Part shown: piece after piece, positions 2 to 22,780 of the stretch | How positions within the stretch are numbered: position 1 is the first letter of the stretch | Layout of the letters: each line of letters opens with the position of its first letter | Assembly: GCA_000165425.1 (NCBI GenBank) | Contig: CT868009.1 | Location: forward strand, 248,001-271,458 | DNA: 23,458 nucleotides | From: Paramecium tetraurelia | Lineage: Eukaryota | Reading direction: 5' to 3' | Position numbers and translations under genes: made by a program | Notes under the pieces: generated by a model | Database searches by the model: none | Told to the model about the DNA's origin: nothing | The model's input: the letters and a program-made list of their open reading frames with translations, nothing else

Positions 2-3000
2 ATAATAAAACAGAATTAGAGAATTCGTAATGAACTCTATTAAAACCTAATTATTGTGGGATAATTTTTTTAAACTCTTATATGGATTTTAATAGCTATA
101 TATATTTTGGGAGAATAAAGAGAGGACTTGCAATTTAAAATATTTTATTATTTTAGTTTACCTACTATTTCACTACAATTCGATATTGAGTAGAGCATCA
201 TATAAAGCGTAACAATATTTTTTTCATTGGCTTTCTTTCTAGCAATATTATTTGGAGGAAATTAGAAATATTCAAAAAGGATTGTTGATTTCCTTTGGGA
301 TGCTTATCCAAATTTATGTTAAATCGTAATCATTCAAAATAGTGGGCATTGTCTACTAACTGATAAAATCAACTTCACATTGGGTGTCTTAAATATTTTT
401 ATGGCAATTGGGAATTCTCAATTAACCAGCCTATATTCATTTCAATAAAATCATACTCAAAAATTAATAAAATCTTATTTTGAAAGGAGCCTACATCCTC
501 TGTGTTATTCGGTATTGGCATTATTCGCAGGTCTACAAATAAGCAGCTTCTACATATCCTACTTATATTTAGGAGCATAATTAATTTTTGACCTTTATTT
601 TGGAATATTTTATTATGTGAAACCTCACATGCAATATTTAAATATTCAAACCTAAAGATTAGTTGTATTTGGCTCTTTTTTAAGATTCCCAGTGGTGCTG
701 TTTCTATTTTATTATCAGGGCAACAACATTTTATATTTTTCATTATTTTCTCTTCCATTTATGATATAGATACATCTAATACTGTGGGACAACAGATTTA
801 TGAACCTAATATACCAAACGAATAAGTTTTTCTAATACATTTGTCTTGATAAGTTTAGTGAGAGGGACAATCTGATCGAATGTTATATAGCATATTATTT
901 TGAAATTATTGATTATAAGAAGCCGTTTAACCGAGTTTTGATGCTGAGCATTTTTTGTAATCATATGAATATGTGTTAAAATCTCAAATGCTTTTGTTAA
1001 AATAGAAACTTTAACGAAAGAGTTAAAATAACAACCCAACTGGCAATGGATGTAAAGGATATTCAATAGCAAATAAATTATGCAGTTGTAGAACAAGATA
1101 TTTAAATGAGTTTTAAGGAGCTGATGTTGTTATTCCTGGATAATTATATCAAGAATGTCAGATATTCTGCCCTTGGAGAAGCTTTGATTTTAAAGTTAAG
1201 TTTATATGAAATTCAAAGCTTTTAACAGAGACTATTCTTAACAAAACTTAGGTTTTAATATCTGAAAATATACTATCATAAATTTCACCCTCAGTTTTTA
1301 GAGAGATGGGCTACTTGTACATAGGTTACTGAAAAATTACAACTTTACATAGGTGAGAGCAATAAATTGAATTTTAATCTTTCAATGTCAATGCAATATT
1401 TTCATTTGCTAGATAGAATACAAACAAATATATTTAGAGTTATCGAAGACAAAATACGTATATTGGAACTATTGAAAAGGAACTATCAAAATGCAGTTCC
1501 TTATCTTTTACATTAGTCTACTGAAAATTATTTTAATTAATGCGATGAACTTGAATAGTTAATATAATAATTAATTGAGCTTAATGGGATTTCATTTGAA
1601 GTCAGAGGATTATAAGATGAATTTTATTCGGAAATAAAGGTAGATTATGCTCGTAAGAATATCCATAAAAAGTCAACTATTCCTTTCATAAACTAAAATT
1701 AAACAGCATTCGTAATCTGCGATTATGAAGGAGACCTCATAATTAAGGACTATTCTAACAATTTTATCTCAATGATTGATGTAAGTTCATAAATAAAGGG
1801 AAGTGCTATTGAATCAATTGTTCCAGTTACCCTATAATAATATCATAGAATGGCTATCGCTTAAATGGTGAGCACAGGCCAAACAAAATTGGTTAATAAG
1901 GAATAATACAGTTTAATGGTGAAATCGGAGAAATATATTTTGGAAGTGGATGCCTTACTAAGATTTGATTATAGATAGTTAGAGCTATTAAGATTCATTG
2001 GATTCATTCAATTGCGTGATAAGGATAGTATTTTAATACTTGCTAACGAGAAAGGCAAGATTGATTCGTATTCTAGATCTGCTGGTGTATTGCTTAAACT
2101 AGATGAAATTGACAGCAGTCATCTGAATTATTTTTAATTATCTCCTTGTTTATTACAAGAGAAGATGGAATTTGAGTTTGATGGATTTTTATTAATTCCT
2201 AAAAGACATTTTAGGTCTGATATTTTGAGCTACATGAAACACTTTTTAGGATCTCCTGATGAATGTATTATATTCTTAGTTAATGGTTAACATCATAAGA
2301 AATGTTACACTTCTGTTACAATCTAATTGTTGAAAGTGAATTCTTCTTATTAATTAAAGGAACTTGATTTTAAATTGATTGCTTTAGATATAATGATGAG
2401 ATAGATTATGATATTAAAATAAGTCAGTAAATCTCAATATATGATGCCGACAGAATCAGTTCGAAAAATATAAACTTTTAAAAAGACTTTTAAGTTTCAA
2501 CAAACTCACACAATTGAATTGACTGAAGAAGAGTACAATTTGATTTATGAAGATGATTCAGAAAGAGAAATCTAAGTTTAAAATAAAAATCAGTGCATTC
2601 TTCCTGAATTCATCCCATCCTTAGATTCCATAAGAACACAAAATGAAAAATTGCTTCTCACTTTTGAATAATGTCGAGATTACCAATATAATTTAAGTAA
2701 AGATAAATCTTTTGAATAATAATAAAAACTTGATACTTTGGAAGGATCCAAGTCAGAGTAAGAAACATTAAGCAATCAAAAGAGGAATACTCATAAATTA
2801 ATAGAAATTGAATTGAATGCTGCAGAAGATCAAAATATAGAAGAATAACTATAAATTATATTAGCAACTGTCAAATCTAGATAGACACGTAAAGAATTTC
2901 TGGAAATGAAATATCAAATGAAAAATAAGCATAAAACTAGTACTTGGTATGGAAGTGGAAATCAATAAACTTAAAAAAAGCTTATTAGAAGCATAGTTCA

Positions 3001-4549
3001 ATAATTCTAAAATTCTTCCTTGAGTTTATTAATTTATATTAAAATAGCATCATGCTTTTTGGTTTTAATAAACGTTGGATTTATTCTAGGATTCGTAATC
3101 AATAGTATAATCAATATTGCTGGTATATAAATGGATTCAAACAATCAAACTTATCCTCTGATATTATTTCAAGATCTCAATTTAGTATTATTAGGTATTC
3201 AACTTGATGATTGGAATAAATCTTATTATGAAATAGCACAATCTTTTAGAATCTTAGGAGCTGAGTAATACTAAAATTTAAGTATTTATGTTAACGATGT
3301 TGAACTGGACTATCACACATTTCTGTAAGAACTTGATAGATAAACTATAATAGTTTAAGAAAATGGACTTCCAATTACCTATTTTACAAAGTACTTTCTA
3401 AAAAATTATATGGTTGAAAAACTTAGAACAATTGAAGAAGCTGTATCTGTTCCTGTGTTTGGAGAGGAAAGTCAATTTCTATTTGATAATTATCCTGAAT
3501 TAGCAAATCAATTATGGAATTTGAAAAATAAAACTACAAGAGATGTTGGTGAAAGAATAGATGAATTAAATTTAATGTCGTAATTATTGCTGATCCTTTC
3601 GATCTTATGTAATCTTATAGCAATACTGGTCTATTTAGCATTTCTAATTAGTGTTATATAGTGGAGGAATTAGCTTTATACAACCCTATTCTTATTTAAC
3701 AACCTTTAAACATAGATTACCCAATTATCAGATTCAATAAATCGTTAGATCTTCTAAATTTCAGGGACAAGAGGAGATGATGAAGAAAAAAATAAGAAAA
3801 TTAAGTTGATTTGGTAGATTTATGGAATTCTAACTTTTTTTCTTCTTTTGATTATCTCTTTAGGTGTGTACATACCTCTGTTCCTGTATATAGATTCTGT
3901 CAATTTATAATCTATCGATGTTAATCAACTCCAAACTGAACTCGCCATGATGCAATTAAAATAATCTGCTATTCTCACTTGGTTTGCTATCAACCAAACT
4001 GAGAACAAGTATAATACTAATTTAGTCCATAACACTTCTATCATCCAATATGTGATTAACTAATGCACTCCCTCTGAATAGTTTGTTCTATACGATCTTC
4101 CTTTTGATAGCAAATATGATTACTTTCCAGAAATTCAGCAGTATTCAACAATCTCGTTATGCAATTGTTCTTTATTACAAAATCAATTAAAGAATGGATA
4201 TTATGGATTTTAATCTTATGTCTCTTAACATTTATAAAGATTAAGAATAATTTGATGAAATCATGGATGCCTACAAAATTGTATTTGAATATCAAATAAA
4301 AAAAAAAAAAGAATTTGACGATTATATGCAGACTAGATTAAAAAATACTTAATAAACCTTATAAATCATCTTGGAGATAAGTGTGATAATTATCATTCTA
4401 ATTTAAACATTGATTCTAATTTTAATCCACGGACAAATTATTAAAATAATTAAATCTGCTAAAACTATTATATACTTATTTCCTCCTCAAATTTTAGCAA
4501 ATACTAAGATAGTACTTTATAAGTATTAATTTAAGGTAGCAATTAATGA
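2..4549 (+). CDS. Large multi-pass membrane protein with PAS-like domain (ciliate TmcB-like PAS/transmembrane family); 5' partial, apparent frameshift near 4220-4253, 3' end uncertain
   Basis: In the ciliate code one frame is open from 2 to the TGA at 4253-4255 (~1417 codons, no intron needed). It has several N-terminal hydrophobic segments, an H-x3-C-x4-C-x-C motif (962-997), a PAS-like stretch 'KGSAIESIVPVTLQQYHRMAIAQMVSTGQTKLVNK' (~1795-1900), and more TM helices near 3020-3110, 3580-3660 and 3810-3890. A final TM helix and 'KSAKTIIYLFPPQILANTKI' continue in another frame (4218-4511). Confidence 0.85.
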
Positions 4550-5217
4550 TTTAGTTTTATTTTTATTTATTATTTATTTAAAAATCTCTAAATTATAATA
4601 TAAAAAATAAAATTGCCTCATCCTTAAATTCAAGAATACCANNNNNNNNNNNNNNNNNNNNNNNNNNNNNNNNNNNNNNNNNNNNNNNNNNNNNNNNNNN
4701 NNNNNNNNNNNNNNNNNNNNNNNNNNNNNNNNNNNNNNNNNNNNNNNNNNNNNNNNNNNNNNNNNNNNNNNNNNNNNNNNNNNNNNNNNNNAGTACAATG
4801 GCTTCCATTTTAAGATAAACACCGACTAGTTAAATAATTTTAATTCATAATTAACAAATGTTTTTATCGTAATAATTTCAAAAAAGATCTACAAATTCAA
4901 AATTTCTAACAGAAGAATCATTAATTAATCATTTTTAAATTCTGAATTTACGAATTATATTCTACATGAACATTAATTATCAGAATTAAAACGTTATTAT
5001 CTATGACTTTTAAGGACCCAAGACATACATGCAAATCAATCTATAATATCACTATTAGAAACAATCATTAAATGAATAAGTAAATAAGAAATACAAGTTT
5101 AATTTTATCTTATAAATGCAAAATTTTTAGTTTGAGCTCATTAAATTTATGCAAATGCAGGGATTAATACCTATCAATATTATTATTATTTCTGTTTTTA
5201 ATTATTAATTAAATCTC

Positions 5218-6375: not shown

Positions 6376-9300
6376 ATGAATTAAGTGTGCAACTCAGAAA
6401 AATAGGAATCGAAAGATCCTTTTGAAAATTTTCAAGTAACTCAATAATTATATCAAGAATTTACAAAAAATTCATATGTTTGATGAAGCCCTGAATGAGA
6501 TTAATGAAGCTTTGAAGATAAATCCACTTTATTCATAGGCCTTAAACTTAATAGGTAGGAAAAACTAATACTTTTTGATAGCTGAGTTCTCAATAAAAGA
6601 TGAAGAACTATTCTAAGTAGAAGAGAGATTACAGGGAGTTATTTAACCAAATCCTCGAATAGAAGATGCTCATTTTAACAGATGTATATTATACATTACA
6701 TTTTAGCACTTTTTTTCAGAAAAAACAAAATTTACAATTTGACGCAAAATCAACTAAACCTAGATTTTAATGAGAGTACTAACCTAAAGAGTATAATTAT
6801 TTTAAGCAAATAGGCTTTTTAATGAAAAAATAAGAAAGTTTATTAGAAGCACTTGGAATATTTTAGAAAATCTTGGAGATACAGTATTTGAATTATCCTG
6901 CCCATTATTACAGAGGTAAAGGAAAAGCATGGATAATTAGGTTTGATTTTTCATGCTTTAGGAAAGCATATGGATGCTTTTTTAGAATTTAATTAGGCAG
7001 TAGAAATAAGGCCTACTTCCACTGAAGCTTTTTTTTAAAGAGCAGAATTGTTATTAGATATGAATAGGAACTTAGATGCCTTGGAAAATTATAACAAATC
7101 AATTGAAATTGATCCTAAAAGGGCCTAATCTTATAAACGAAGAGGTATTTTCTTATATTTAGGAAAGGTAAACTTCTAAAATAAATGGAGAATTATGAAG
7201 AGGCCATTATAAATTTCAATCAGGCAATTGAATTAAATTCAGGTTTTGCTAATAATTATGTGAATAGAGGTTTTAAATTATTCTATCCAAAGGATTGTTA
7301 TTTAAGGCTCTGAATGAAAAACAAAAAGCCCTTGAAGATTATGATTTAGCCATTTCTATCAACCCTAAATTTATCAAAGCCTACAAAAATAGAGGTAGTT
7401 TCTATTCTTTTTTTAGCCATCTTATTTCAAGAAATTAATTAAAATGATAAAGCATTAAGTGACCTCAATAAAATCTTAGAATTAAACCCAAAAGATATTT
7501 ATACTCATATTTAAAGAGGTAGAAATTAATTTAAATAAAGCTAATTTACTATAATTGCTTGGATGTACTGAGTAAGCTCTTTAAGATTACACAAAAGCAA
7601 TTGATATTAATCCAGATGAAACAGAGAATTATTGCAAACGAGGTAAAGAATTATTAATATTAAAGCTGATCTGTATAAGTAGTTAGGCTAGACTGATTTA
7701 GCAATGAAAGATTATGACAAAGTTTTAGAGATTAATCCAAAAAATTCAAATGGTTATTGGAATAAAGGTATTGACTTTCTTAATGGAAGCCATCATCTTC
7801 GAAGAATTGAAATAATATGAACCTGCAATTGCTTTTTTGACTGGGTTTATCTAATTAAATCCATTAGATGAGAATGCTTATATGAAAAGATGTAGATAAT
7901 TCATGTTTTATTATATTAGCCGATCTCTATAAATTGGTAAATCAACTTGATAAGGCATTAGATGATTAATAAAAGATAATAGAAATCAACCCAAAAAATG
8001 TACTTGCGTTATTAAATAGAGGTTCAAATTTGAATATTTTGCTGTAGCATTTCTTTTCAAGGAAATGAATGAAATCGAAAAAACATTTTAAGATCTAAAT
8101 AGAATTTTGGAGATTAAGCCAAATAACATCAATACTTATTTTATTAGAGGTAAAGTTTAATAGTAATTCAGGAAATTTGTACAAAGATCTAAATTAAGAT
8201 GATCAAGCTATTCAAAATTTTAGCAAGATAATTGAGATAGACCCAACTCATTTTATCGTTTTTTATAATCGAGGTTAGGCGTTTTTATATAAAATAAAAA
8301 GCAAAAATCTATCAAAAATTACAGCAGAATGATCTGGCACTTTAAGATTTAAATAAAGCAGTCGAACTCAACCCATAAATCACTTTTACTCTTATAGAAA
8401 GAGGTGGAAAATGATCCTATTTTAGGCATCCAACTTTTTAGTATGAACTAAAAAGATAAAGCATTAATTGATTATAACAGGCTCTGAAATAATCCGCAAT
8501 GCTGTGATGCTTACATTAAAAAAGGTATTTTATTCGAGCATTCATTTTAGGCATATTATTAGAATCTTTAGATTAAAAATAATAAGCCCTTGAAAATTAT
8601 AATCAAGCTATCGAGATTGATAAAAATAATTTTTTAGCTTATAATTATAGAGGTATATTATTGTTATCCAAGTAACTAAGCTGATTATTGGAATTCAATC
8701 GATGAGAAGGAGAAAGCAATTGCTGATTATGATTAAGCAATTTCATTAGACCCTAAAAATGCATTAACATATTTCAAAAGAGCTAAGCTGCTCTCAGCAG
8801 TCAACTAGAAAGATAAAGCTATAGAAGATTTCACAAAATCTTTACAAATTGATCCCGGATAGAGTTCAATTCTAATGTATCGAGGTAAATGATGAATTGT
8901 ATTTGAAGGGGATTTATTCAAAGAATAAAATTTAATTTCTTAGGCAATTCAAGATTATTCAGATGCTATTCAAATTTGTCCTAATCAAACACAGATATAT
9001 ATAAAGAGAGGTATTTAACCACCTTCAGTTTTAGGTAATATTTTACTCGATCCAGTGAAGGATTACAAAAAGGCTTTACAAGATTATAATTATGCAATCG
9101 AAATTGATTCAAATTGTTTTGAGGCTTTTTATTAGAGAGGTATTACTCTTTCTTAAATTAGCAATACTGAACAAATGCATTTATAGAAACGATCTTGCAA
9201 TTGCTGATTTCAACATATGTATTTAAATAAATCCAAAGAGCGAACTTGCATATATTTCTAAGGGTCATACTTAAATATTTATAATAGGTTTAATATTGAA

Positions 9301-11072
9301 CGAAATGAATAAGCCAGAATAGGCAGTAATAGAATACAATAAAGCCTTATTGATAAATCCAAATAATTTCAATATAACCCTAAAAAGAGGTATCATATAT
9401 TACAAAAAATTAAGCTTATGCTTATATTTTAATGAAACTTTACAAATAAGCTTTAAACGACTTCTCAACAGTGATCGAAATGTACCCAAATGAATCGAGT
9501 TATTATACTAGTAGAGGTTTATTGATTATGTATAATATAGCGAACCTATTGTTTAATATTGGTTAAAAGGAAGAAGCTTTAAAAGATTATAACAAAGCTA
9601 TAGAATTGAATCCTAAAGATGCAACCTATTATTATAATAGAGGTAGAATTGAATATAATTGAAGCCGTCTTTTACAATAAAGTTAATTTGAAGGAGATGT
9701 CACTTCAAGATTACAATATGACTATCGAACTAGATCCGAAAAATTATTCTGCTTACAATAACAGAGGTTAATAGATCCTATAACAATAGGCCTTTTACTT
9801 TAGAGTATTGGCAAGAAAGATGAGGCTCTATAAGATTTTTTAAATGCAATTAGACTATGTCCTGATCATCCTTTATATTTGGCAAACTTAGGAGATCAAT
9901 ATTATTCTGATCACTAATTTGAATTAGCTAATCAATATTATAAATAAGCATAAACCCAAATAGAATGTATCTCACTTTAAAAATTAAATTAATTAAGATT
10001 GAATATTGAGCATTTAAATTTTATTAAAACAAAAGTCTAATTAATAACCTAGATTGAAGATGAAATTAAAAAAATGAAAAAATAAATAGAATAATTGCCT
10101 AAGACAAGCTCAAACAATGAATAGATTAAAGAATGCTTAGAAAAAGTGTCAACTATAGAAAGGTCTTTATCTTATTCAGTTTTACCGTGCAATCAGGAAT
10201 AGCAAAGTGATGCACAACAAACGATAATTTCGTTTTATTAATAAATGTAGAAATAATTGAAAGAACTTTATGTCAAACTAGATTAATAGGATAAAGTTAT
10301 CAATTTATTAGTCTAGTAAGATTAGTTTAAAATAGAATAATAAATGAAAGAAATAAAACTACCATAAAATAAGCATCAATTTACATATTTCCGATCTTTG
10401 TTTTGGCATTTATATTATTACTTACATGCAATGTCAGAGATTTCTACTAATTTGTTTTAAGTGAATACAAATGCTATGATAGAAAGTTCATCTGAAAAAG
10501 TTATAAATCTTGTCAAAAAAACATTTAATATAGGAACGAAGGTTTTAGATAAAGTACATATCGCCGCACATGCATTTCATATTATTAATGAAGCATTAAA
10601 TATTGTAGTAGATCATAAAAGGGAGGAAAAGTTTAAAAAAAGATTAATGCTCTTAACTAATATATTAAAATTGTTTGCTATTACACCTACTGAATTAGAA
10701 AGAGAGGTCTAATTTACTGCCATTGAACTAAGTAGAACTTAGTAAACTGGGTTGAAAGAAAATTAAAATTCACGATTCATTGAATTTATTAAGAAATTGG
10801 CTGAGGAAGAAAGTATCTCAGAGGAGAAGAGCAAGGATATTTTTTGGAAGAAAGGAATTGAAGATACCTTCATTATTTTACGATATTTAGAAAAGTTTAA
10901 TTAAAAAATTATACAAGAAGATCAAAATAAAAAATTAAGTGAAGTATTTTTGGAAGCCATCAAATTCAATATAATTGAGGAAAGTAGCAAAAAACAAAAA
11001 GATCCATCATAAACATAAATGAAATAAAAAAAGCCTAAAAAAAAATTTTAAGAAGCATGTAATATTTAATGA
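6376..11072 (+). CDS. Large TPR-repeat protein (~1357 aa, ~26 TPRs) with coiled coil, unassigned C-terminal domain and CaaX tail; 26 introns; one in-frame TGA at 8485-8487 as assembled
   Basis: ATG 6376, TGA 11070-11072. Removing 26 GT-AG introns of 22-28 nt (first 6436-6457, last 9767-9789) yields repeats such as 'ANLLFNIGQKEEALKDYNKAIELNPKDATYYYNR'. The last exon (9790-11072) ends 'KQKKPKKKFQEACNIQ*'. Confidence 0.93.
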
Positions 11073-13713: not shown

Positions 13714-15251
13714 TCATAATAATATTAATTATATCATTTTCGTATTGCCAACAATTGATGCATTTTTGAATTCTTATGCTCTATCAAATTTATCCTAATT
13801 CAATAACGAATTATCTGAAATTTTTTGAATTATTACTTTTATTTGTTAATATTTCTTAATTTCTTGATATTCGAAGGGCAGAATCATAAGACTTTATAGC
13901 TTTATTATATTCTTTAAGGTTATCTAAAGCTAATCCTATAATTAATTTCGAAATTAGAAACCTTTTCTAAAATAATAGTGCTGATTATTAGAATTTATAT
14001 TGATTGCTTTATTATAGTATTCTACAGCTTCAAGGTAGTGTTCAACTTAATGTAAGGCTTTTCCTAAAATTTTATTATTGTTATTATTAATTAGGTTACC
14101 TTTATAGTAGTAGGCCTTATCATTTTGAAAATTTATTTTTAGTGCCAAGTCATAACATTCAATTGCTTCTTCAAAAAGTTTCAATTAAGTTAGCGCATAT
14201 CCTTACTTTGAGATAAAATAAATACCTTTATTTAAATATATTGCATCGTTTTGGGAATTTAATTTTAAAGCTTAATTATAATTTGCAATTGCATCCTCAA
14301 AATATTCTAATTTTGTTAGAGTATTTCCTTTGATTTTCATTGTAATAAAATACCTTTATAAAAGTAAGCGGATGGATTATCCAATCGTAAATGAATTGCC
14401 TTATTATAATAAACAATAGCTTCCTCATAATTTTACATCAGATATAGATCATTAGCTTAATTAATTTTAAATATATAACCTTAAGTTAAATAATGAGTTT
14501 ATTTTTGAATGGCTTCTAAGTATGTTTAGTTTTGGGCTTGGCTGGCTTGTTTATGACTTAATTAAATAGTTTTATACTCATCAATTTCAACGTATATAAA
14601 GAGCATCACAACTGCTCCAATCAGAAAAAGATAAATATACATAATACAAACTATGACTTGAAAAGTTACAATGCACCATGAACCTCCTTTTGAAAGATAG
14701 TTCATTATATACTCTAATTGTAAATATCACAAAGTATACGTGTAAATTTCTATTTTTCATTAGTTAAGCGAACCTTCTTTGTTAATTCTAAAGATTAAAT
14801 TAGGTGTTCCATTTAATTTAACTTATTTACTAAATACTTTATTAAATTTACAATCATCTAGTTATCTATCTTGTTAAAATTCCTCTTTTAACATTATGAT
14901 TTATTCATTTGAAAAAGAATTCAATTTTTACTTCGATAAATTTCCTTAAATATTTCTAAAATCTTCTATTTATTTTTCATAGGCTTCAATTTAATGTCTG
15001 TTTAATTGACTTAATTGAATTTATTTTTCTCTGATCTTGTCTAAGTGATTCTTTTTTTCTTTGATAGAAATTGATAAGTCTTTGATTATTTGTCCAAATT
15101 CTTTGCAACTTTCCATATGATCCGAATGATCTTCTTCTAAACATAATTAACAATAGATAGAATTTTAAGGGCATTTTATGGAAACACAAAAACCTATGCA
15201 AATTTATGATTTGTGAAGTCTACAAATCAGAGCCTTTGATGTATTAAACAT
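13714..15251 (-). CDS. ~443 aa protein: N-terminal Cys/His (B-box-like) finger, coiled coil, single TM helix, ~5 TPRs; 8 introns
   Basis: ATG at 15251: 'MFNTSKALICRLHKSQICIGFCVSIKCPQNSIYCQLCLEEDHSDHMESC'. TM segment 'WCIVTFQVIVCIMYIYLFLIGAVVMLFIYV' at ~14590-14680. TPR exons of 102 nt at 14354-14455, 14226-14327, 14100-14201 and 13962-14063. Introns of 22, 26, 24, 26, 24, 36, 26 and 22 nt, all phase 1. TGA at 13714-13716. Confidence 0.88.
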
Positions 15252-16050: not shown

Positions 16051-16596
16051 ATTCAAGGTAATCTATTATTTTGGTCTTTCTTTAGCATTTCGAATGTCCA
16101 ATTAAAAATGATACATCAATATTTAATGTTTCTGTGGATACATTATGCAAATATTTCTTCTCACATAAGGGTGAAAAATCTTCTTCTTCTTTCTACATCT
16201 TATTTCCTATTTTGAAACCGACTGAAATTAAAGTGATAAAAGTATAGTTCTTATGGTTAAAAGAAAAACAATGGAAACATTAATTTTAATTCAGGACTTC
16301 CTATATGTATAAACAGGACATCTCAAAGGACCATTATTTAATTTATCTAATTCCATTGTTCACAATAAAAAATCATCCCTCAATTCAACTCTTTTCCTTT
16401 GCTCAAATAGCAAAGTATTAGCAAATCTATACTCACATAAGGCTCTCCTAAGTCATATTAAGATTTCTATAAATATAAGTGTTCTAAAAAGAAAAAAAAT
16501 CGCCAGTTAACTATGAAAAAAGTTTGTTTATCAAAAAGAAAATATAGTAAACAAGAATTGATATTGAATATTTGCAATGCATTATTATTATAATTA

Positions 16597-19500
16597 TCAA
16601 TTATATTATAATCCTATTGTTCTTTCTAAATTATAACTTCCTCTTGATTTAAATAATGGTCTTAAGTCGATGCCTAATTAATTATTAAATTCTCCTTTCA
16701 ACATTAAAGCATCTTAAGCTTACAATANNNNNNNNNNNNNNNNNNNNNNNNNNNNNNNNNNNNNNNNNNNNNNNNNNNNNNNNNNNNNNNNNNNNNNNNN
16801 NNNNNNNNNNNNNNNNNNNNNNNNNNNNNNNNNNNNNNNNNNNNNNNNNNNNNNNNNNNNNNNNNNNNNNNNNNNNNNNNNNNNNNNNNNNNNNNNNNNN
16901 NNNNNNNNNNNNNNNNNNNNNNNNNNNNNNNNNNNNNNNNNNNNNNNNNNNNNNNNNNNNNNNNNNNNNNNNNNNNNNNNNNNNNNNNNNNNNNNNNNNN
17001 NNNNNNNNNNNNNNNNNNNNNNNNNNNNNNNNNNNNNNNNNNNNNNNNNNNNNNNNNNNNNNNNNNNNNNNNNNNNNNNNNNNNNNNNNNNNNNNNNNNN
17101 NNNNNNNNNNNNNNNNNNNNNNNNNNNNNNNNNNNNNNNNNNNNNNNNNNNNNNNNNNNNNNNNNNNNNNNNNNNNNNNNNNNNNNNNNNNNNNNNNNNN
17201 NNNNNNNNNNNNNNNNNNNNNNNNNNNNNNNNNNNNNNNNNNNNNNNNNNNNNNNNNNNNNNNNNNNNNNNNNNNNNNNNNNNNNNNNNNNNNNNNNNNN
17301 NNNNNNNNNNNNNNNNNNNNNNNNNNNNNNNNNNNNNNNNNNNNNNNNNNNNNNNNNNNNNNNNNNNNNNNNNNNNNNNNNNNNNNNNNNNNNNNNNNNN
17401 NNNNNNNNNNNNNNNNNNNNNNNNNNNNNNNNNNNNGACCATCAGGAGAGAAGCAAACTGAATAAACAGTGCTAGTATGACCACCTAATTAGGCTTTTTA
17501 TTCACGTGTTATTACATCCCACAAACGGATGGATGCATCATCACCACCAGATGCTAATGTGGTATTATCGGAGAAACATACTGACAATACAGAGCTAGTA
17601 TGCCCAACTAATTTGGCTTTTAATTCTCCTGTCTTAACATCCCATAAATAGATTGAGTTATCAGAACTGCCAGATGCTAATGTAGTACCATCAGGAGAGA
17701 AACAGATTGACATAACTTATTTAGTATGGCCATGTAATATGGCTTTTTATTATCCTGTCTTAATATCCCATAAAAGGATTGAGTTATCATAACTACCAGA
17801 CGCTAATGTAGTACCATCAGGAGAGAAACAGACTGACATGACTTATCTACTATGGCCATCTAATTTTCCTTTTTAAAATCCTGTCTTTACATCCCATAAA
17901 CAGATAGACTTATCCGAACTACCTGATACTAAAGTTGTTCCATCAGGAGAAAAACAGAGTGACCAAACTTTATCACTATGACCTTATAATTTAGCCTTTT
18001 ATTATCCTGTATTAACATCCCATAAACTGATAGATTCGTCATCACTCCCAGATGCTATTGTTAAGCCATCAGGTGTGAAACAGACTGAATGGACAGTCTT
18101 GGTATGATAATCTAATTTGACTTTTTATAATTCTATTTCAATATCCCATAAACGGATTGAGTTATCTTAACTACAAGATGATAATGTATTCCCATCAGGA
18201 GAGAAATAGACTGAATTAACACAATCAGTATGACCATCTAATTTAGCTTTTTATTGTCCTGTCTTAATATCCCATAACCGGATAGAATTATCATCGCCAT
18301 TCAATACTCCACTACCAGATGCTAATGTGGTGCCATCAGAAGAGAAACAAATTGAATTAACTTAATCTCTATGACCATCTAATTTGATTTTTTATTATCC
18401 CGTCTTAACATCCCATAAACTGATAGACATATCTAAGCTACCAGATGCTAAAATCGTTCCATCAGGAGAGAAACAAACTGTCTAAACACTGTCAATATGA
18501 CCAAATAATCTGGCGTTCAATTATTCTGTTTTTACATCCCATAAACTGATAGAGTAATCAGAACTGCCAGATGCTAATGTTTAACCATCAGGAGAGAAAC
18601 AGACTGACATAATTTTTTTAAGGTAGCCATATAATCCGCCTATTTGTTATCCTGTTATGACATCCCATAATAGGATAAAATAATTATCCAATAGTTAACC
18701 ACTACCACTACAAGATACTAATGTAGTACCATCAGGAGAGAACTAAACTGTCTGTATCTTGTTTTGGTGGCTGATTAATTTTAATATTTATTTCCCTGTT
18801 TTGAGATTCCATAAATATATAAATTCGCAATCACCAAAAGCCAGAGTCGTACCATTAGGTGAGAAGCAAACTGAATTAACATTGCTTTTTCCTTTTAATA
18901 CAAACTTGATTTTTCCTGTTTTAACATCCCACAAACATATGAATTTATGATTACCACATGAAGCCAATGATCTGCCATCTGGAGAGAAAAAAACTTAATT
19001 GAACCCATTGAGATGACCATTTAACACCATCACCTCATTTATTCTTAGATTTTCCCATTTACAATTAAATAATTTGGCTCCATTCAAATTCATTCCACTT
19101 ATAATTACACCATAAAATTCAGATCCACTTAAGTCACATCTCACAAAATTTGCCCCTATTAATGAAGTATTCCTAATTTTAATATTTTCAAATGATTATG
19201 TCTTCAAATCCACTTTCATTTCAACTAATAAATGAAGTGAATTTGATCCACATTATATGTATCTCTTATCTAAGGCAGTAAGATGAACTAAAAATTTTAG
19301 AAATTCTATGATTCTCTTATTATATGATATTTTTGTGATCAAATATTATTTAATTTTTTCATATGCTTCTTTTGAATAATTCTGTTTATTAAAATCATGA
19401 TTCATAATTTTTTTCAGAGCTGCTGTTAATCTCTAAATGTTAATTTCTCCGACATATTACATCTACTCGTTATCAACCTGTGTTAACTTTGCTACTTATT

Positions 19501-19708
19501 ATGCATACTATTCAACTTTCCTTTGATTTACCCTTTCTGAAAGAAATTATAGGGGGTCTTTAATCATTTCTTTTTTAAGCATTCCAAAAATTACACAGAA
19601 AATCTTTTCATCTAAATCTGTAATTTATTCTAAAATCTAATACAAATCACTTTGCGATTTATAAGTTTATGATTACTGTGATTTTTTCACATTTCCACAG
19701 TTTCCCAT
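16597..19708 (-). CDS. Pentapeptide-repeat + WD40-repeat protein (ciliate NWD-like family, no NACHT domain visible); interrupted by an assembly gap
   Basis: ATG 19708 'MGNCGNVKK'. The frame is open without introns down to the gap at 17436: '[18 protein letters not shown]', pentapeptides '[46 protein letters not shown]', then 12 complete WD40 repeats plus a partial one. Beyond the gap, '[42 protein letters not shown]' ends at TGA 16597-16599. Confidence 0.92.
17437..19025 (-). repeat. Coding tandem array of ~126-nt WD40 units
   Basis: Plus-strand 'ccatcaggagagaaaca' and 'atcccataa' recur at ~126-nt spacing (e.g. W-D codons near 18410, 18270, 18145, 18018, 17892, 17766, 17640). Confidence 0.95.
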
Positions 19709-19949
19709 TATAGAAAAATTAAATTTATATCTGTTTCTATTACTTTATTAAAAAGTTGAGCAGATAAATTAGAAAAATCGGTAAGGTAGAAAGCAAAGAT
19801 TTGGAACTAGTTACAATTCAAGAAACTATAATTGTGAACATTTGCATAAATTTGGTTATAGAATAGTATGAATATGGAATATCAGTTCAAAATAAATTAT
19901 TAACAAAATTATTACAAGTATTTCCACAATTTAATTTATTTTTAAGTAA

Positions 19950-20990
19950 AACAATAGTGCTAGGGTTGTTTAAATTAATAATTGAATAAATCAATTGATT
20001 TACTAAGGCAACATTTATCTTCATATAACCAAAGAAGGATTTCGTATAAAATCAGTTTAACTTATTATTTTGGGTAAAGAAAAAAAAGTTGGGAAACTGG
20101 ATTAGATACAGCTATTAATTTGTTAATTGAATCCAAAATAACTTTATTACAAACCAATAATGAAAGAATCGAAGCGAGCTCACCTTGAAGGAAAAATATT
20201 TTCATTAAATTAAGCGGTTCCCTGAACATTTTTAGGTGATAATCTTAAGGTTGGCTCATTTATGTTTCCTTTTGAAGCCCATCTATCTGCAAACTTACCT
20301 GGAACATTTTATTATAAAATGAAGTTCTTTTAAAATTTGAGCTATAAATTAATTCCTTAGTAATCTCCACATCTAAATAGATGATGATATAAAAAAAATA
20401 TTTATGTAAACATCTTAAGGGAACCAATTAAGAAAACTTCAATTGAAACAAAAGAGGGAATACTTAAATTGTTAACGGATGCTTATTAATAGAAAAATAT
20501 CTATAATAAATCATATCTTTGACCTCTTATGTTGAAGTGAAAGTCGAAAAAATAATATATATATTTTCCAACCGAATTTCTAAACTTTAATTATGAAATA
20601 TAAAACTCAAATTATCAATTTGATGTAGATGAGGTAAATTCTGTGCTTATGTATCGATTAAGATTGGGATCTAACAAAGATTGTGAACATATTCTTGAAT
20701 TAAATGAAATTATTCATACCATCAAGGACTTTAAGCATGAAATAAATTTAATCTGCTTAATAGAGGAATAAATCATAATTGATTAATTTAAAAAATCCTC
20801 TTAAACATCTAACTCTATCAATTATAGGAAGTTGTGTGAATTCAATATATTAATTGAAAATGCAGCCAAATTTTGGGGGTAAATGTTAATCTATTTGGTT
20901 TTTCTTGTTTTTTAACCCAGACCTACTGTGAAGATTTTACTTAGCGTTTGGCTATTCCTCCTAAAAGCATATTCAACCAATTATCTAAAC
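19950..20990 (+). pseudogene. Arrestin-fold (alpha-arrestin-like) pseudogene
   Basis: 'GNIYLHITKEGFRIKSVQLIILGKEK/SWE', 'LKVGSFMFPFEAHLSANLPGTFYY...LSYKL' (arrestin N), 'ILREPIK' linker, 'YFPTEFLNFNYEIQNSNYQFDVDEVNSVLMYRLRL' and 'SIIGSCVNSIYQLKMQP' (arrestin C). These are broken by an in-frame TGA (~20223) and several frameshifts. Boundaries are approximate. Confidence 0.72.
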
Positions 20991-21269
20991 TCAAAATTGT
21001 CATCTAAAAGCATTTTAACCAATTATAATCTAATCAAACACTCAAGCTTAAATATAGTAATTGAATAATCCAATAAAAATTGTAAATTAACATAATACAT
21101 TAAAAAGTTAGATTTTCATATTGTTAAAAATTGACCTGATCCTGAAATACAATTTGTTAATTCATTATGTGAATCATATAAAAAGACAAAGGCGAATTTT
21201 TTTATCCTGTGTAATAAATCGAGTGATATATTTTTTAATTGGAAAAATAAAACTAAAATATAAAAAAAT

Positions 21270-22000
21270 TATTATTAAACATCAGTAACCTCCTGAATTA
21301 TTGGAATATAAGTCTATAAATTTTCTTATATTTAAAACTGGTTTTAAAGATAGAATAGAGATAGGATTTGTTGATATAGAAAATAATTGTATTACTCATA
21401 TTGATAATAAAATTAAAACTATATTATATATATAAATTCATTTTTAGCACTATAAATAAAATTTTAAAGATTAAGTAGATCAATACTATTCAGTAGATTG
21501 TCTTAGTTGCTATTCAAAAATGAATGTCTTTTATGGTTTAATTCCAATGGATGTGTAAGCTTTAAGATGTATAGCAGACGGGCTCCGACGGATCTCATTN
21601 NNNNNNNNNNNNNNNNNNNNNNNNNNNNNNNNNNNNNNNNNNNNNNNNNNNNNNNNNNNNNNNNNNNNNNNNNNNNNNNNNNNNNNNNNNNNNNNNNNNN
21701 NNNNNNNNNNNNNNNNNNNNNNNNNNNNNNNNNNNNNNNNNNNNNNNNNTTATTATTAAACATCAGTAACCTCCTGAATTATTGGAATATAAGTCTATAA
21801 ATTCTCTTATATTTAAAACTGTCTTAAAGATAGAATAGAGATAGGATTTGTTGTTTTTATATATATAAATTCATCCTTAGCACTATAAATAAAATCTTAA
21901 AGATTAAGTAGATCAATACTATTCAGTAGATTGTCTTAGTTGCTATTCAAAAATGAATGTCTCTTATGGTTTAATTCCAATGGATGTGTAAGCTTTAAGA
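21270..22000. repeat. Near-identical duplicated segment either side of the gap (21270-21567 vs 21751-22000); probably the same locus assembled twice
   Basis: Both copies run from 'tattattaaacatcagtaacctcctg' to 'ggatgtgtaagctttaaga'. They differ by scattered substitutions, a 1-nt indel and one 47-nt indel. Confidence 0.9.
21375..21423. mobile_element. Candidate 47-bp Internal Eliminated Sequence (IES) or TA-indel
   Basis: Present in copy 1, absent in copy 2. Bounded by TA at 21375 and 21422. Inward-facing ends read TATAGAAA and TATAGTTT versus the Paramecium consensus TAYAGYNR. Confidence 0.72.
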
Positions 22001-22780
22001 AATATGTCACATACTTCATCTAGTGCTCTTGATCTACCCTAAAGATACTTATCTTAGATTTAGAACAGAGACTTGGATGCAACTAATATTAGATACCTAA
22101 AGGCAAAGACTGTCCAGATCTAACCCTTTGAACTGGTTCCTGAAGACATATCAAATCATTTATAAAAATTGATCAGTGATATGAGTGAACAACTCTTAAG
22201 AGTTGTCGATAAACTTTATTGTCCTACTGAAAAATCTATGATTTAGGCACTTTCATAAAATATTAATTCTGACGGTTTTCAAAAATTATTAGAGTACGTT
22301 TAAGAAACTAAAATAGTCAAGGCTGATAATCTTGACCACCTAGAGTTTCCATGGTAGTTTCTCATTCAGCTAATCAATTGACTCCAGCACAACCTTAACC
22401 AATTGTTGATTCTTCAGATGATTTATATCTATCTGATCTCATTTACAAAGCATATGTTAATACAACTGTTCTAGTTTAATCAGCTATGACACCAGCCATC
22501 AAGTGGATTTATGAACACAATAAAAGAATAAACCATCATTCCAACCAAATTAGTTGAATATTGTTCATAATATATTGGCGAAGCTGTCACTTCAACCTAT
22601 GATTTCAACAGATGAATAGAAATAGAAGCAATTCACTTAAAGTCATGGTTATATTATCACCCTTTTCTGATTACTATTTGAAAATCGACAATCTCCCAAG
22701 TAACTGCAACTGAAATTGAACTTAAAGCTATTAAAGAGGGATGTACAAGTTGCATTGAACAGCCATATTTTAATAATTAA
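21953..22780 (+). pseudogene. Disrupted gene of unknown family
   Basis: ATG 21953 opens ~142 codons to TGA 22378-22380. Protein-like sequence continues in shifted frames ('DDLYLSDLIYKAYVNTTVLVQSAMTPAIKWIYE', 'IIPTKLVEYCSQYIGEAVTSTYDFNR*') with internal TGAs. GC content is visibly higher than in the flanks. Confidence 0.55.

Follow-up and report, generated by a model that had tools for sequence, protein, structure and literature searches.

Repeat-length exons and phase-1 micro-introns in one codon of the tetratricopeptide repeats of a Paramecium tetraurelia gene, probably derived from old duplication of an intron-bearing unit

In the ciliate Tetrahymena, leucine-rich repeat (LRR) genes contain tens of thousands of exons of exactly 90 bp with >96-98% phase-2 introns, and these arrays have been explained by the clonal expansion of exon-intron units (Xiong et al. 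2019, PMC6564038). According to the same paper, the LRR genes of Paramecium tetraurelia do not have such arrays, and its accessible passages hold no analysis of exons encoding tetratricopeptide repeats (TPRs). Here we describe a TPR gene on the plus strand (6376..11072) of a 23,458-nucleotide stretch of P. tetraurelia macronuclear DNA (GenBank assembly GCA_000165425.1, contig CT868009.1, positions 248,001 to 271,458 of the forward strand), which we refer to as the window and whose numbering is used throughout. The gene consists largely of repeat-length exons separated by tiny introns that all interrupt the same codon of the repeat, a structure that probably arose by old duplication of an intron-bearing unit. 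Comparisons with published work refer to the accessible passages of the papers cited. The Tetrahymena arrays and this gene have in common that they occur in a ciliate, that an exon corresponds to one repeat, that the tandem arrays are long and nearly uniform in intron phase, that the junction codon links neighbouring exons and that unit duplication is invoked. They differ in that the Tetrahymena exons encode LRRs, are 90 bp long and are bounded by phase-2 introns, whereas the exons here encode TPRs, are 102 nt long and are bounded by phase-1 introns. Tetrahymena also harbours young groups of similar units with longer introns, in contrast to the saturated units and introns of 22-28 nt found here. 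The parallel with Tetrahymena had been drawn in an earlier reading of this DNA made from the sequence alone (the sequence-only reading); it is apt in kind, but not in exon length or phase.

Two studies on P. tetraurelia itself have touched on such exons. A figure legend in Vitali et al. (2019, PMC6771405) refers to 'TPR coding exons', nearly all of which carry a germline internal eliminated sequence (IES) at their 5' end; this implies a design of one repeat per exon. Multi-copy IESs have been reported to arise when TPR repeats expand or recombine (Arnaiz et al. 2012, PMC3464196). Both papers deal with the same species and domain family, but their topic is DNA elimination, and an exon length of 102 nt, the phase and the position of the intron in the repeat do not appear in their accessible passages. 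The IES example gene, PTET.51.1.G1500001, differs in identifier from the public model of the present gene, GSPATT00031071001. Outside the ciliates, each TPR in the NB-ARC-TPR proteins from Ectocarpus is encoded by its own exon of 126 nt (a 34-residue TPR plus linker, 42 residues), and exons of 102 nt were deemed truncated (Zambounis et al. 2012, PMC3341825). Ectocarpus resembles our case in having an exon for each TPR and inactivated TPR exons, and duplication and shuffling of exon units were invoked there. It differs in its NB-ARC domain, long introns and hypothesised role in immune reception, whereas here NB-ARC was not found and the exons are 102 nt long. Our literature search, for which most subscription journals and supplements were beyond reach, gave no description of the 102-nt length, phase or codon position of TPR exons in Paramecium, and the gene identifier gave no match. 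In the searched literature, the TPR exon design of Paramecium has been glimpsed but never analysed. The sequence-only reading had missed the work on 'TPR coding exons' and on Ectocarpus, along with the in-frame TGA in exon 17 and the other TPR genes of the same design described below.

The GC content is ~27% across the region, which is protein-coding only when TAA and TAG are read as glutamine. We rebuilt the gene model from window coordinates under NCBI table 6 (ciliate code), pairing hallmark donor sites with candidate acceptors. The avoidance of TGA alone was too weak a guide, as wrong frames are often open under this code. The model comprises 27 exons, 26 introns and 1357 codons plus the stop, with the ATG at 6376 and the terminal TGA at 11070-11072, and in the protein ~27 units of TPR length precede a helical C-terminal domain of ~370 residues. 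The exon lengths are, in order, 60, 97, 102, 84, 102 and 204 nt, ten times 102, then 99, 102, 204, 102 and 105, five times 102, and 1283 nt. The counts given for the 25 internal exons in the sequence-only reading (19 of 102 nt, two of 204 nt, and one each of 97, 84, 99 and 105 nt) were reproduced exactly, and the array includes runs of 10 and of 5 consecutive 102-nt exons. After splicing, a length of exactly 34 residues is shared by 24 of the 27 units, and the remaining ones have 28, 33 and 35. Exon 1 (6376..6435, 60 nt) carries the proposed ATG and encodes an N-terminus similar to that of P0002, a P. sonneborni protein discussed below. Exon 2 (6458..6554, 97 nt) encodes an N-terminal cap and a first partial TPR, and exons 3-5 encode degenerate TPR units. 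The two 204-nt exons (6941..7144 and 8681..8884) each hold two units without an intron between them, which would reflect intron loss. Exon 27 (9790..11072, 1283 nt) is intron-free and encodes the last TPR unit together with the C-terminal domain. The TPR assignment was supported by a Pfam scan of the public protein P0001, which contains exons 22-27 in frame; TPR_1 matched in four stretches with 112.6 bits (cut-off 27.8; E 3.3e-33), and TPR_11, TPR_2, TPR_17 and TPR_8 were also above cut-off.

Intron 1 (6436..6457, 22 nt) is in phase 0 and is the sole intron not in phase 1; all 25 array introns, from 6555 to 9789, are in phase 1, as had been noted previously. They are confined to a single codon of the TPR; the rest of the array and the 1283-nt last exon are free of introns. 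The codon preceding the split is Arg in 20 cases, Lys in four and Ile in one, and the split codon encodes Gly (10), Ala (12) or Ser (3), in accordance with the earlier description of a split between an R/K codon and a small residue of helix A. This residue corresponds to position 8 of the Pfam TPR_1 profile. An array exon therefore holds positions 8-34 of one repeat and positions 1-7 of the next, so that the intron cuts helix A rather than falling between repeats. The claim of one TPR per exon holds for the length of the exons, but strictly not for their boundaries. The introns are 22-28 nt long with a mean of 24.0 nt (n=26), consistent with the published range for P. tetraurelia (18-33 nt, mean 25; PMC8997360). 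Since the length of 21 of the 26 introns is not divisible by three, the frame is kept only if they are removed. The spliced coding frame contains two TGA in 1358 codons, whereas the other two frames contain 34 and 63. The anatomy of the array is not due to chance.

The first four phase-1 introns are located at 6555..6581 (27 nt, following the Ile codon that is the sole exception to Arg/Lys), 6684..6706 (23 nt), 6791..6813 (23 nt) and 6916..6940 (25 nt). For the third of these, a 38-nt intron with its donor at 6776 and the same acceptor at 6813 would also keep the frame, giving an exon 4 of 69 nt instead of 84 nt. Between the two 204-nt exons, introns lie at 7145..7167 (23 nt), 7270..7292 (23 nt, GTT donor), 7395..7416 (22 nt), 7519..7540 (22 nt), 7643..7665 (23 nt), 7768..7789 (22 nt), 7892..7919 (28 nt), 8022..8047 (26 nt, GTT donor), 8150..8171 (22 nt, CAG acceptor), 8274..8301 (28 nt, GTT donor), 8404..8425 (22 nt, the only GTG donor of the gene, directly upstream of exon 17), 8525..8550 (26 nt) and 8653..8680 (28 nt). 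The remaining ones are found at 8885..8908 (24 nt, with an in-frame TGA if retained), 9011..9034 (24 nt), 9140..9161 (22 nt), 9264..9287 (24 nt, GTC donor), 9390..9414 (25 nt), 9517..9540 (24 nt, GTT donor), 9643..9664 (22 nt) and 9767..9789 (23 nt, GTT donor). Four of the 25 (6555-6581, 9011-9034, 9264-9287 and 9517-9540) are a multiple of three and without in-frame TGA, and their retention would add 8-9 residues each without nonsense-mediated decay. Stop-free introns of this kind are said to be counter-selected in P. tetraurelia (PMC8997360).

The age of the array was examined by comparing 24 units of 102 nt at the nucleotide level. Pairwise identity averaged 48% (range 28-64%), and identities at codon positions 1, 2 and 3 were.447,.610 and.383; synonymous (third) positions are saturated among the units. 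Adjacent units were no more similar than remote ones. The introns, which the sequence-only reading had described as mutually dissimilar, indeed were so; the mean similarity score of their cores was -0.147 as compared with -0.143±0.012 for shuffled sequences, and 125 of 200 shuffles reached the observed value. With a maximum unit identity of 64% and intron cores that resemble shuffles, no recent clonal expansion was visible at the nucleotide level. By these measures the repeat expansion is old, and dissimilar introns are to be expected after an old expansion with saturated synonymous sites.

The presence of 25 introns in one codon and none elsewhere is most simply explained by duplication of an intron-bearing unit. 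A unit already holding a tiny phase-1 intron in codon 8 of the TPR, in helix A, would have been duplicated in tandem long ago at the DNA level. Each copy would have inherited the intron at the identical position, the intron sequences would have drifted to randomness except at their ends, and two later, precise intron losses would have produced the 204-nt exons. The old expansion of an exon-intron unit proposed in the sequence-only reading agrees with the single codon and phase, the saturated units, the randomised introns and the two precise losses.

The design is not confined to this gene. An unrelated second TPR gene in the window, on the minus strand from ~14726 to ~13790, contains four consecutive 102-nt exons (14455-14354, 14327-14226, 14201-14100 and 14063-13962) and five phase-1 introns within 13936..14479 (14479-14456, 14353-14328, 14225-14202, 14099-14064 and 13961-13936; 24, 26, 24, 36 and 26 nt, respectively), which fall in the same TPR codon. 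Its public model, P0157, is a protein of 280 residues whose N-terminal helix is hydrophobic. Three of the five introns are spliced identically in P0157 and in our model; P0157 keeps the first (24 nt) as coding sequence and leaves the last (26 nt) unspliced, and its C-terminus is probably wrong. Relative to its P. octaurelia orthologue P0003, a third gene, P. tetraurelia P0004, displays insertions of 8, 8 and 7 residues that immediately follow the Arg at TPR position 7, and these appear to represent introns of 24, 24 and 21 nt that were retained. The full comparison of the 2006 model P0004 with P0003 gave insertions of 9, 8, 8 and 7 residues and a stretch of ~85 columns reading as a wrong frame, which looks like intron retention and mis-splicing in a further TPR gene belonging to this family. 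The 102-nt, phase-1 design is therefore present in both TPR genes of the window and is suggested for P0004. Since it recurs in other TPR genes of the genome, we regard it as a family trait and not as a property special to the main gene. Whether Paramecium holds a genome-wide class of 102-nt TPR exons with phase-1 micro-introns at codon 8, whose germline units probably carry an eliminated sequence at a fixed offset, so that exon, intron and eliminated sequence would make up one module, seems to us an evenly balanced question. As a trace of excised germline sequence, a fixed TA near the 5' end of the exons was sought, and no convincing one was found; the best candidate, at offset 7, occurred in 9 of 24 units.

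Concerning the C-terminal ~370 residues, a search retrieved 34 family representatives at E <= 0.001, 11 of them at E <= 1e-30, and all ten members that were looked up were Paramecium proteins (from P. aurelia species and P. bursaria). Homologous C-terminal domains occur in the Paramecium proteins P0002 (P. sonneborni), P0003 (P. octaurelia), P0004 (P. tetraurelia) and P0132 (P. bursaria). P0002 matched it with an E value of 3.4e-92 and 50% identity, and the N-terminal cap and last TPR unit of P0002 also match the main gene. The array of ~27 units is the longest seen, as against 10 in P0002 and ~13 in P0003. An AlphaFold2 model of the domain was all-helical, with a long coiled-coil-like helix and a mean pLDDT (predicted local distance difference test) of 73.8. 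A Pfam scan of P0001 and the last exon returned only TPR-clan families and PPTA, with nothing beyond the last TPR and no NB-ARC. The ESM Atlas gave no assignment of the domain (best score 0.79), a Foldseek search found nothing in the PDB at E <= 0.001, and a wide VIA-align search produced only matches to single long helices, with Z <= 5.3. A metagenome scan for DNA of relatives with this domain yielded 443 pattern matches, none of which was confirmed. Judging from TPR domains generally, the protein most likely acts as a scaffold whose TPRs bind partners and which is anchored or oligomerised through the helical domain.

The public model of the main gene, P0001 (GSPATT00031071001, XP_001428240.1), is recorded as a macronuclear protein product of P. 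tetraurelia, and our last exon is 100% identical to it. This model is badly mis-built over window 8500-9790. It begins after the internal TGA, reads exons 18-21 in the wrong frame and treats as coding the stop-free 24-nt introns 9264-9287 and 9517-9540; credence can be given only to its last ~590 residues. In terms of transcription, two raw oligo-dT RNA runs contained 7 and 13 reads of 58 nt on the gene, from ~1.1 and ~1.3 thousand million letters read, respectively. All 20 reads had the first mate on the minus strand, the orientation expected of a plus-strand transcript, and they were spread from exon 11 to the last exon, falling on either side of exon 17. In two other runs, contigs matched only exon 6 and the last exon. 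The gene is weakly transcribed. Fractions of sampled words of 0.67, 0.61 and 0.58 in runs X3, X4 and X5, near the 0.70 computed for fully spliced mRNA, were not counted as evidence, as the matching pieces did not show splicing. On the other hand, the independently annotated P0002 aligns to residues 638-985 of our model with one single-residue gap, and eight junctions (model residues 692-931) fall inside the aligned stretch, which provides indirect support for these eight splice junctions. Each intron of the model would be spliced in vivo.

Taking these results together, we consider it probable, with good confidence, that this is a macronuclear gene of a Paramecium-restricted TPR family, that its array derives from an old duplication of an intron-bearing unit in a design shared across the family, and that exon 17 has suffered a lesion. 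Several points weigh against this. The duplication origin is an argument from parsimony, not a traced history. In a unit-by-unit comparison with P0002, the last unit alone gave a clear positional match, while the other units paired with the most consensus-like ones. In 10 of 25 cases the junction sequence, AGAG/G (the slash marks the splice junction), is similar to a protosplice site, which makes recurrent insertion formally possible. The splice signals are partly weak, with GTA donors in 19 and TAG acceptors in 14 of the 26 introns; among the 20 RNA reads of 58 nt, a number too small to prove the junctions, no splice junction was found. Finally, exon 17 carries an in-frame TGA.

Exon 17 (8426..8524, 99 nt) encodes a damaged unit. 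Aligned to the profile of the 102-nt exons, it showed a 2-nt gap followed, 6 nt later, by a 1-nt gap, and the TGA (8485..8487, codon 577 of the model) falls in the short out-of-frame stretch between the two. Small deletions have thus produced the in-frame TGA, and the copy in the reference assembly cannot give a full-length protein. UGA is a stop codon in Paramecium, and on this ground we set aside a reading of the TGA as a sense or selenocysteine codon. Within the family of proteins with TPRs and the helical C-terminal domain, the internal stop is present in this copy only. These results raised the possibility that the gene is a recently disabled pseudogene, with its array a fossil and no full-length protein combining the TPRs and the C-terminal domain made in this strain. 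In addition to the TGA within the pattern of 2-nt and 1-nt deletions, the sole GTG donor of the gene is found in the intron directly upstream of exon 17, and RNA reads are very sparse (7 and 13). Among the matches listed (120 of 187), none but P0001 exceeded 46% identity over the C-terminal query, and no exon skipping able to bypass exon 17 is reported for the species in the accessible passages of PMC8997360. Nevertheless, the model contains only one internal TGA in 1357 codons, as against 34 and 63 in the other frames. Open reading frame fragments in other assemblies are ~90% identical to the C-terminal domain with mostly conservative changes, and sense-oriented reads flank exon 17 on both sides. 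As the remaining frame is intact, the lesion would be very recent, strain-specific or an assembly error. We estimate the probability that the gene is a pseudogene at slightly less than even.

The old duplication of an intron-bearing unit also has to be weighed against the independent insertion of introns, repeat by repeat, at a protosplice site provided by the Arg-Gly/Ala codons (AGA GGN / AGA GCN). This would agree with the exon side ending in AG at 22 of the 25 junctions, 10 of them AG/G, with the unrelated intron sequences, with the two repeat boundaries that lack an intron and with the use of the identical site in unrelated TPR genes. It would, however, require that a single gene gained introns at least 25 times, each time in the one codon and never elsewhere. 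Of the 49 AG/G sites in the spliced coding sequence, 40 hold no intron, including 15 in the last exon, which has no introns, and the base following 14 of the 26 junctions is C and not a purine. Moreover, the published germline data describe whole TPR units copied as DNA together with their non-coding inserts (PMC3464196, PMC6771405). Independent insertion is, in our estimation, very unlikely.

We similarly give little credence to an actively shuffling cassette system, in which symmetric 1-1 exons are gained, lost or exchanged at present, as proposed for the Tetrahymena LRR and the Ectocarpus TPR and LRR genes. All internal array exons are symmetric, and the matched C-terminal domain starts between residues 98 and 633 in those longer representatives that were listed, as opposed to ~985 here. 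This implies very different upstream lengths, corresponding to the TPR array where checked (P0002 and P0003), with ~17 more units here than in P0002. Germline TPR repeat expansion or recombination has also been reported (PMC3464196). Against this, the most similar units reach only 64% nucleotide identity, and neighbours are not closer than other units. The array is collinear with that of P0002 over its last nine units, with one single-residue gap, despite only 50% identity of the C-terminal domain, and P0003 and P0004, an orthologous pair of a paralogue, have the same repeats in the same order. Introns of 22-28 nt would be poor targets for intronic recombination, and unequal crossing-over that keeps the register would preserve the frame with or without introns. 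Exon skipping is not known in P. tetraurelia, according to the accessible part of PMC8997360. The ongoing gain, loss or shuffling envisaged in the sequence-only reading was thus not borne out by unit identity, the neighbour comparison, the P0002 collinearity or the P0003/P0004 order. Array length within the family does, over long times, vary.

The window contains other features of note. A large WD40-repeat gene is located on the minus strand at 16436-19990 (WD40 E 4.3e-120, 10 stretches); WD40 repeats have been named together with TPRs as sites of repeat expansion (Arnaiz et al., PMC3464196). A run of 709 N at 16728-17436 lies inside this gene, and the very low GC content at ~16500-17500 is an artefact of this run. 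Two further N runs are present at 4642-4791 (150) and 21600-21749 (150). An open frame of 1417 codons on the plus strand (2-4255), which runs off the 5' end of the window, encodes many hydrophobic stretches and had no Pfam match at E <= 0.001. At 20932-22378 on the plus strand, two overlapping open frames with near-identical peptide stretches flank the N run at 21600-21749, suggesting a local duplication or an assembly join.

The significance for the gene itself is limited, as this copy may be dead and the function of its C-terminal domain was not assigned by Pfam, the ESM Atlas or the fold searches. For annotation, the case of P0001 shows that serious errors can occur in the public models of such genes, and an intron without a stop and with a length divisible by three is readily misread as coding. 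Should the design prove general in Paramecium, it would constitute a second, independent ciliate system, beside the 90-bp LRR arrays of Tetrahymena, in which repeat proteins grow by the copying of exon-intron units. It would also provide a way to ask how introns of 25 nt and germline eliminated sequences travel with the units. Taking into account that the units are old and that the whole-genome duplications of this species are well dated, the timing of this process could be worked out.

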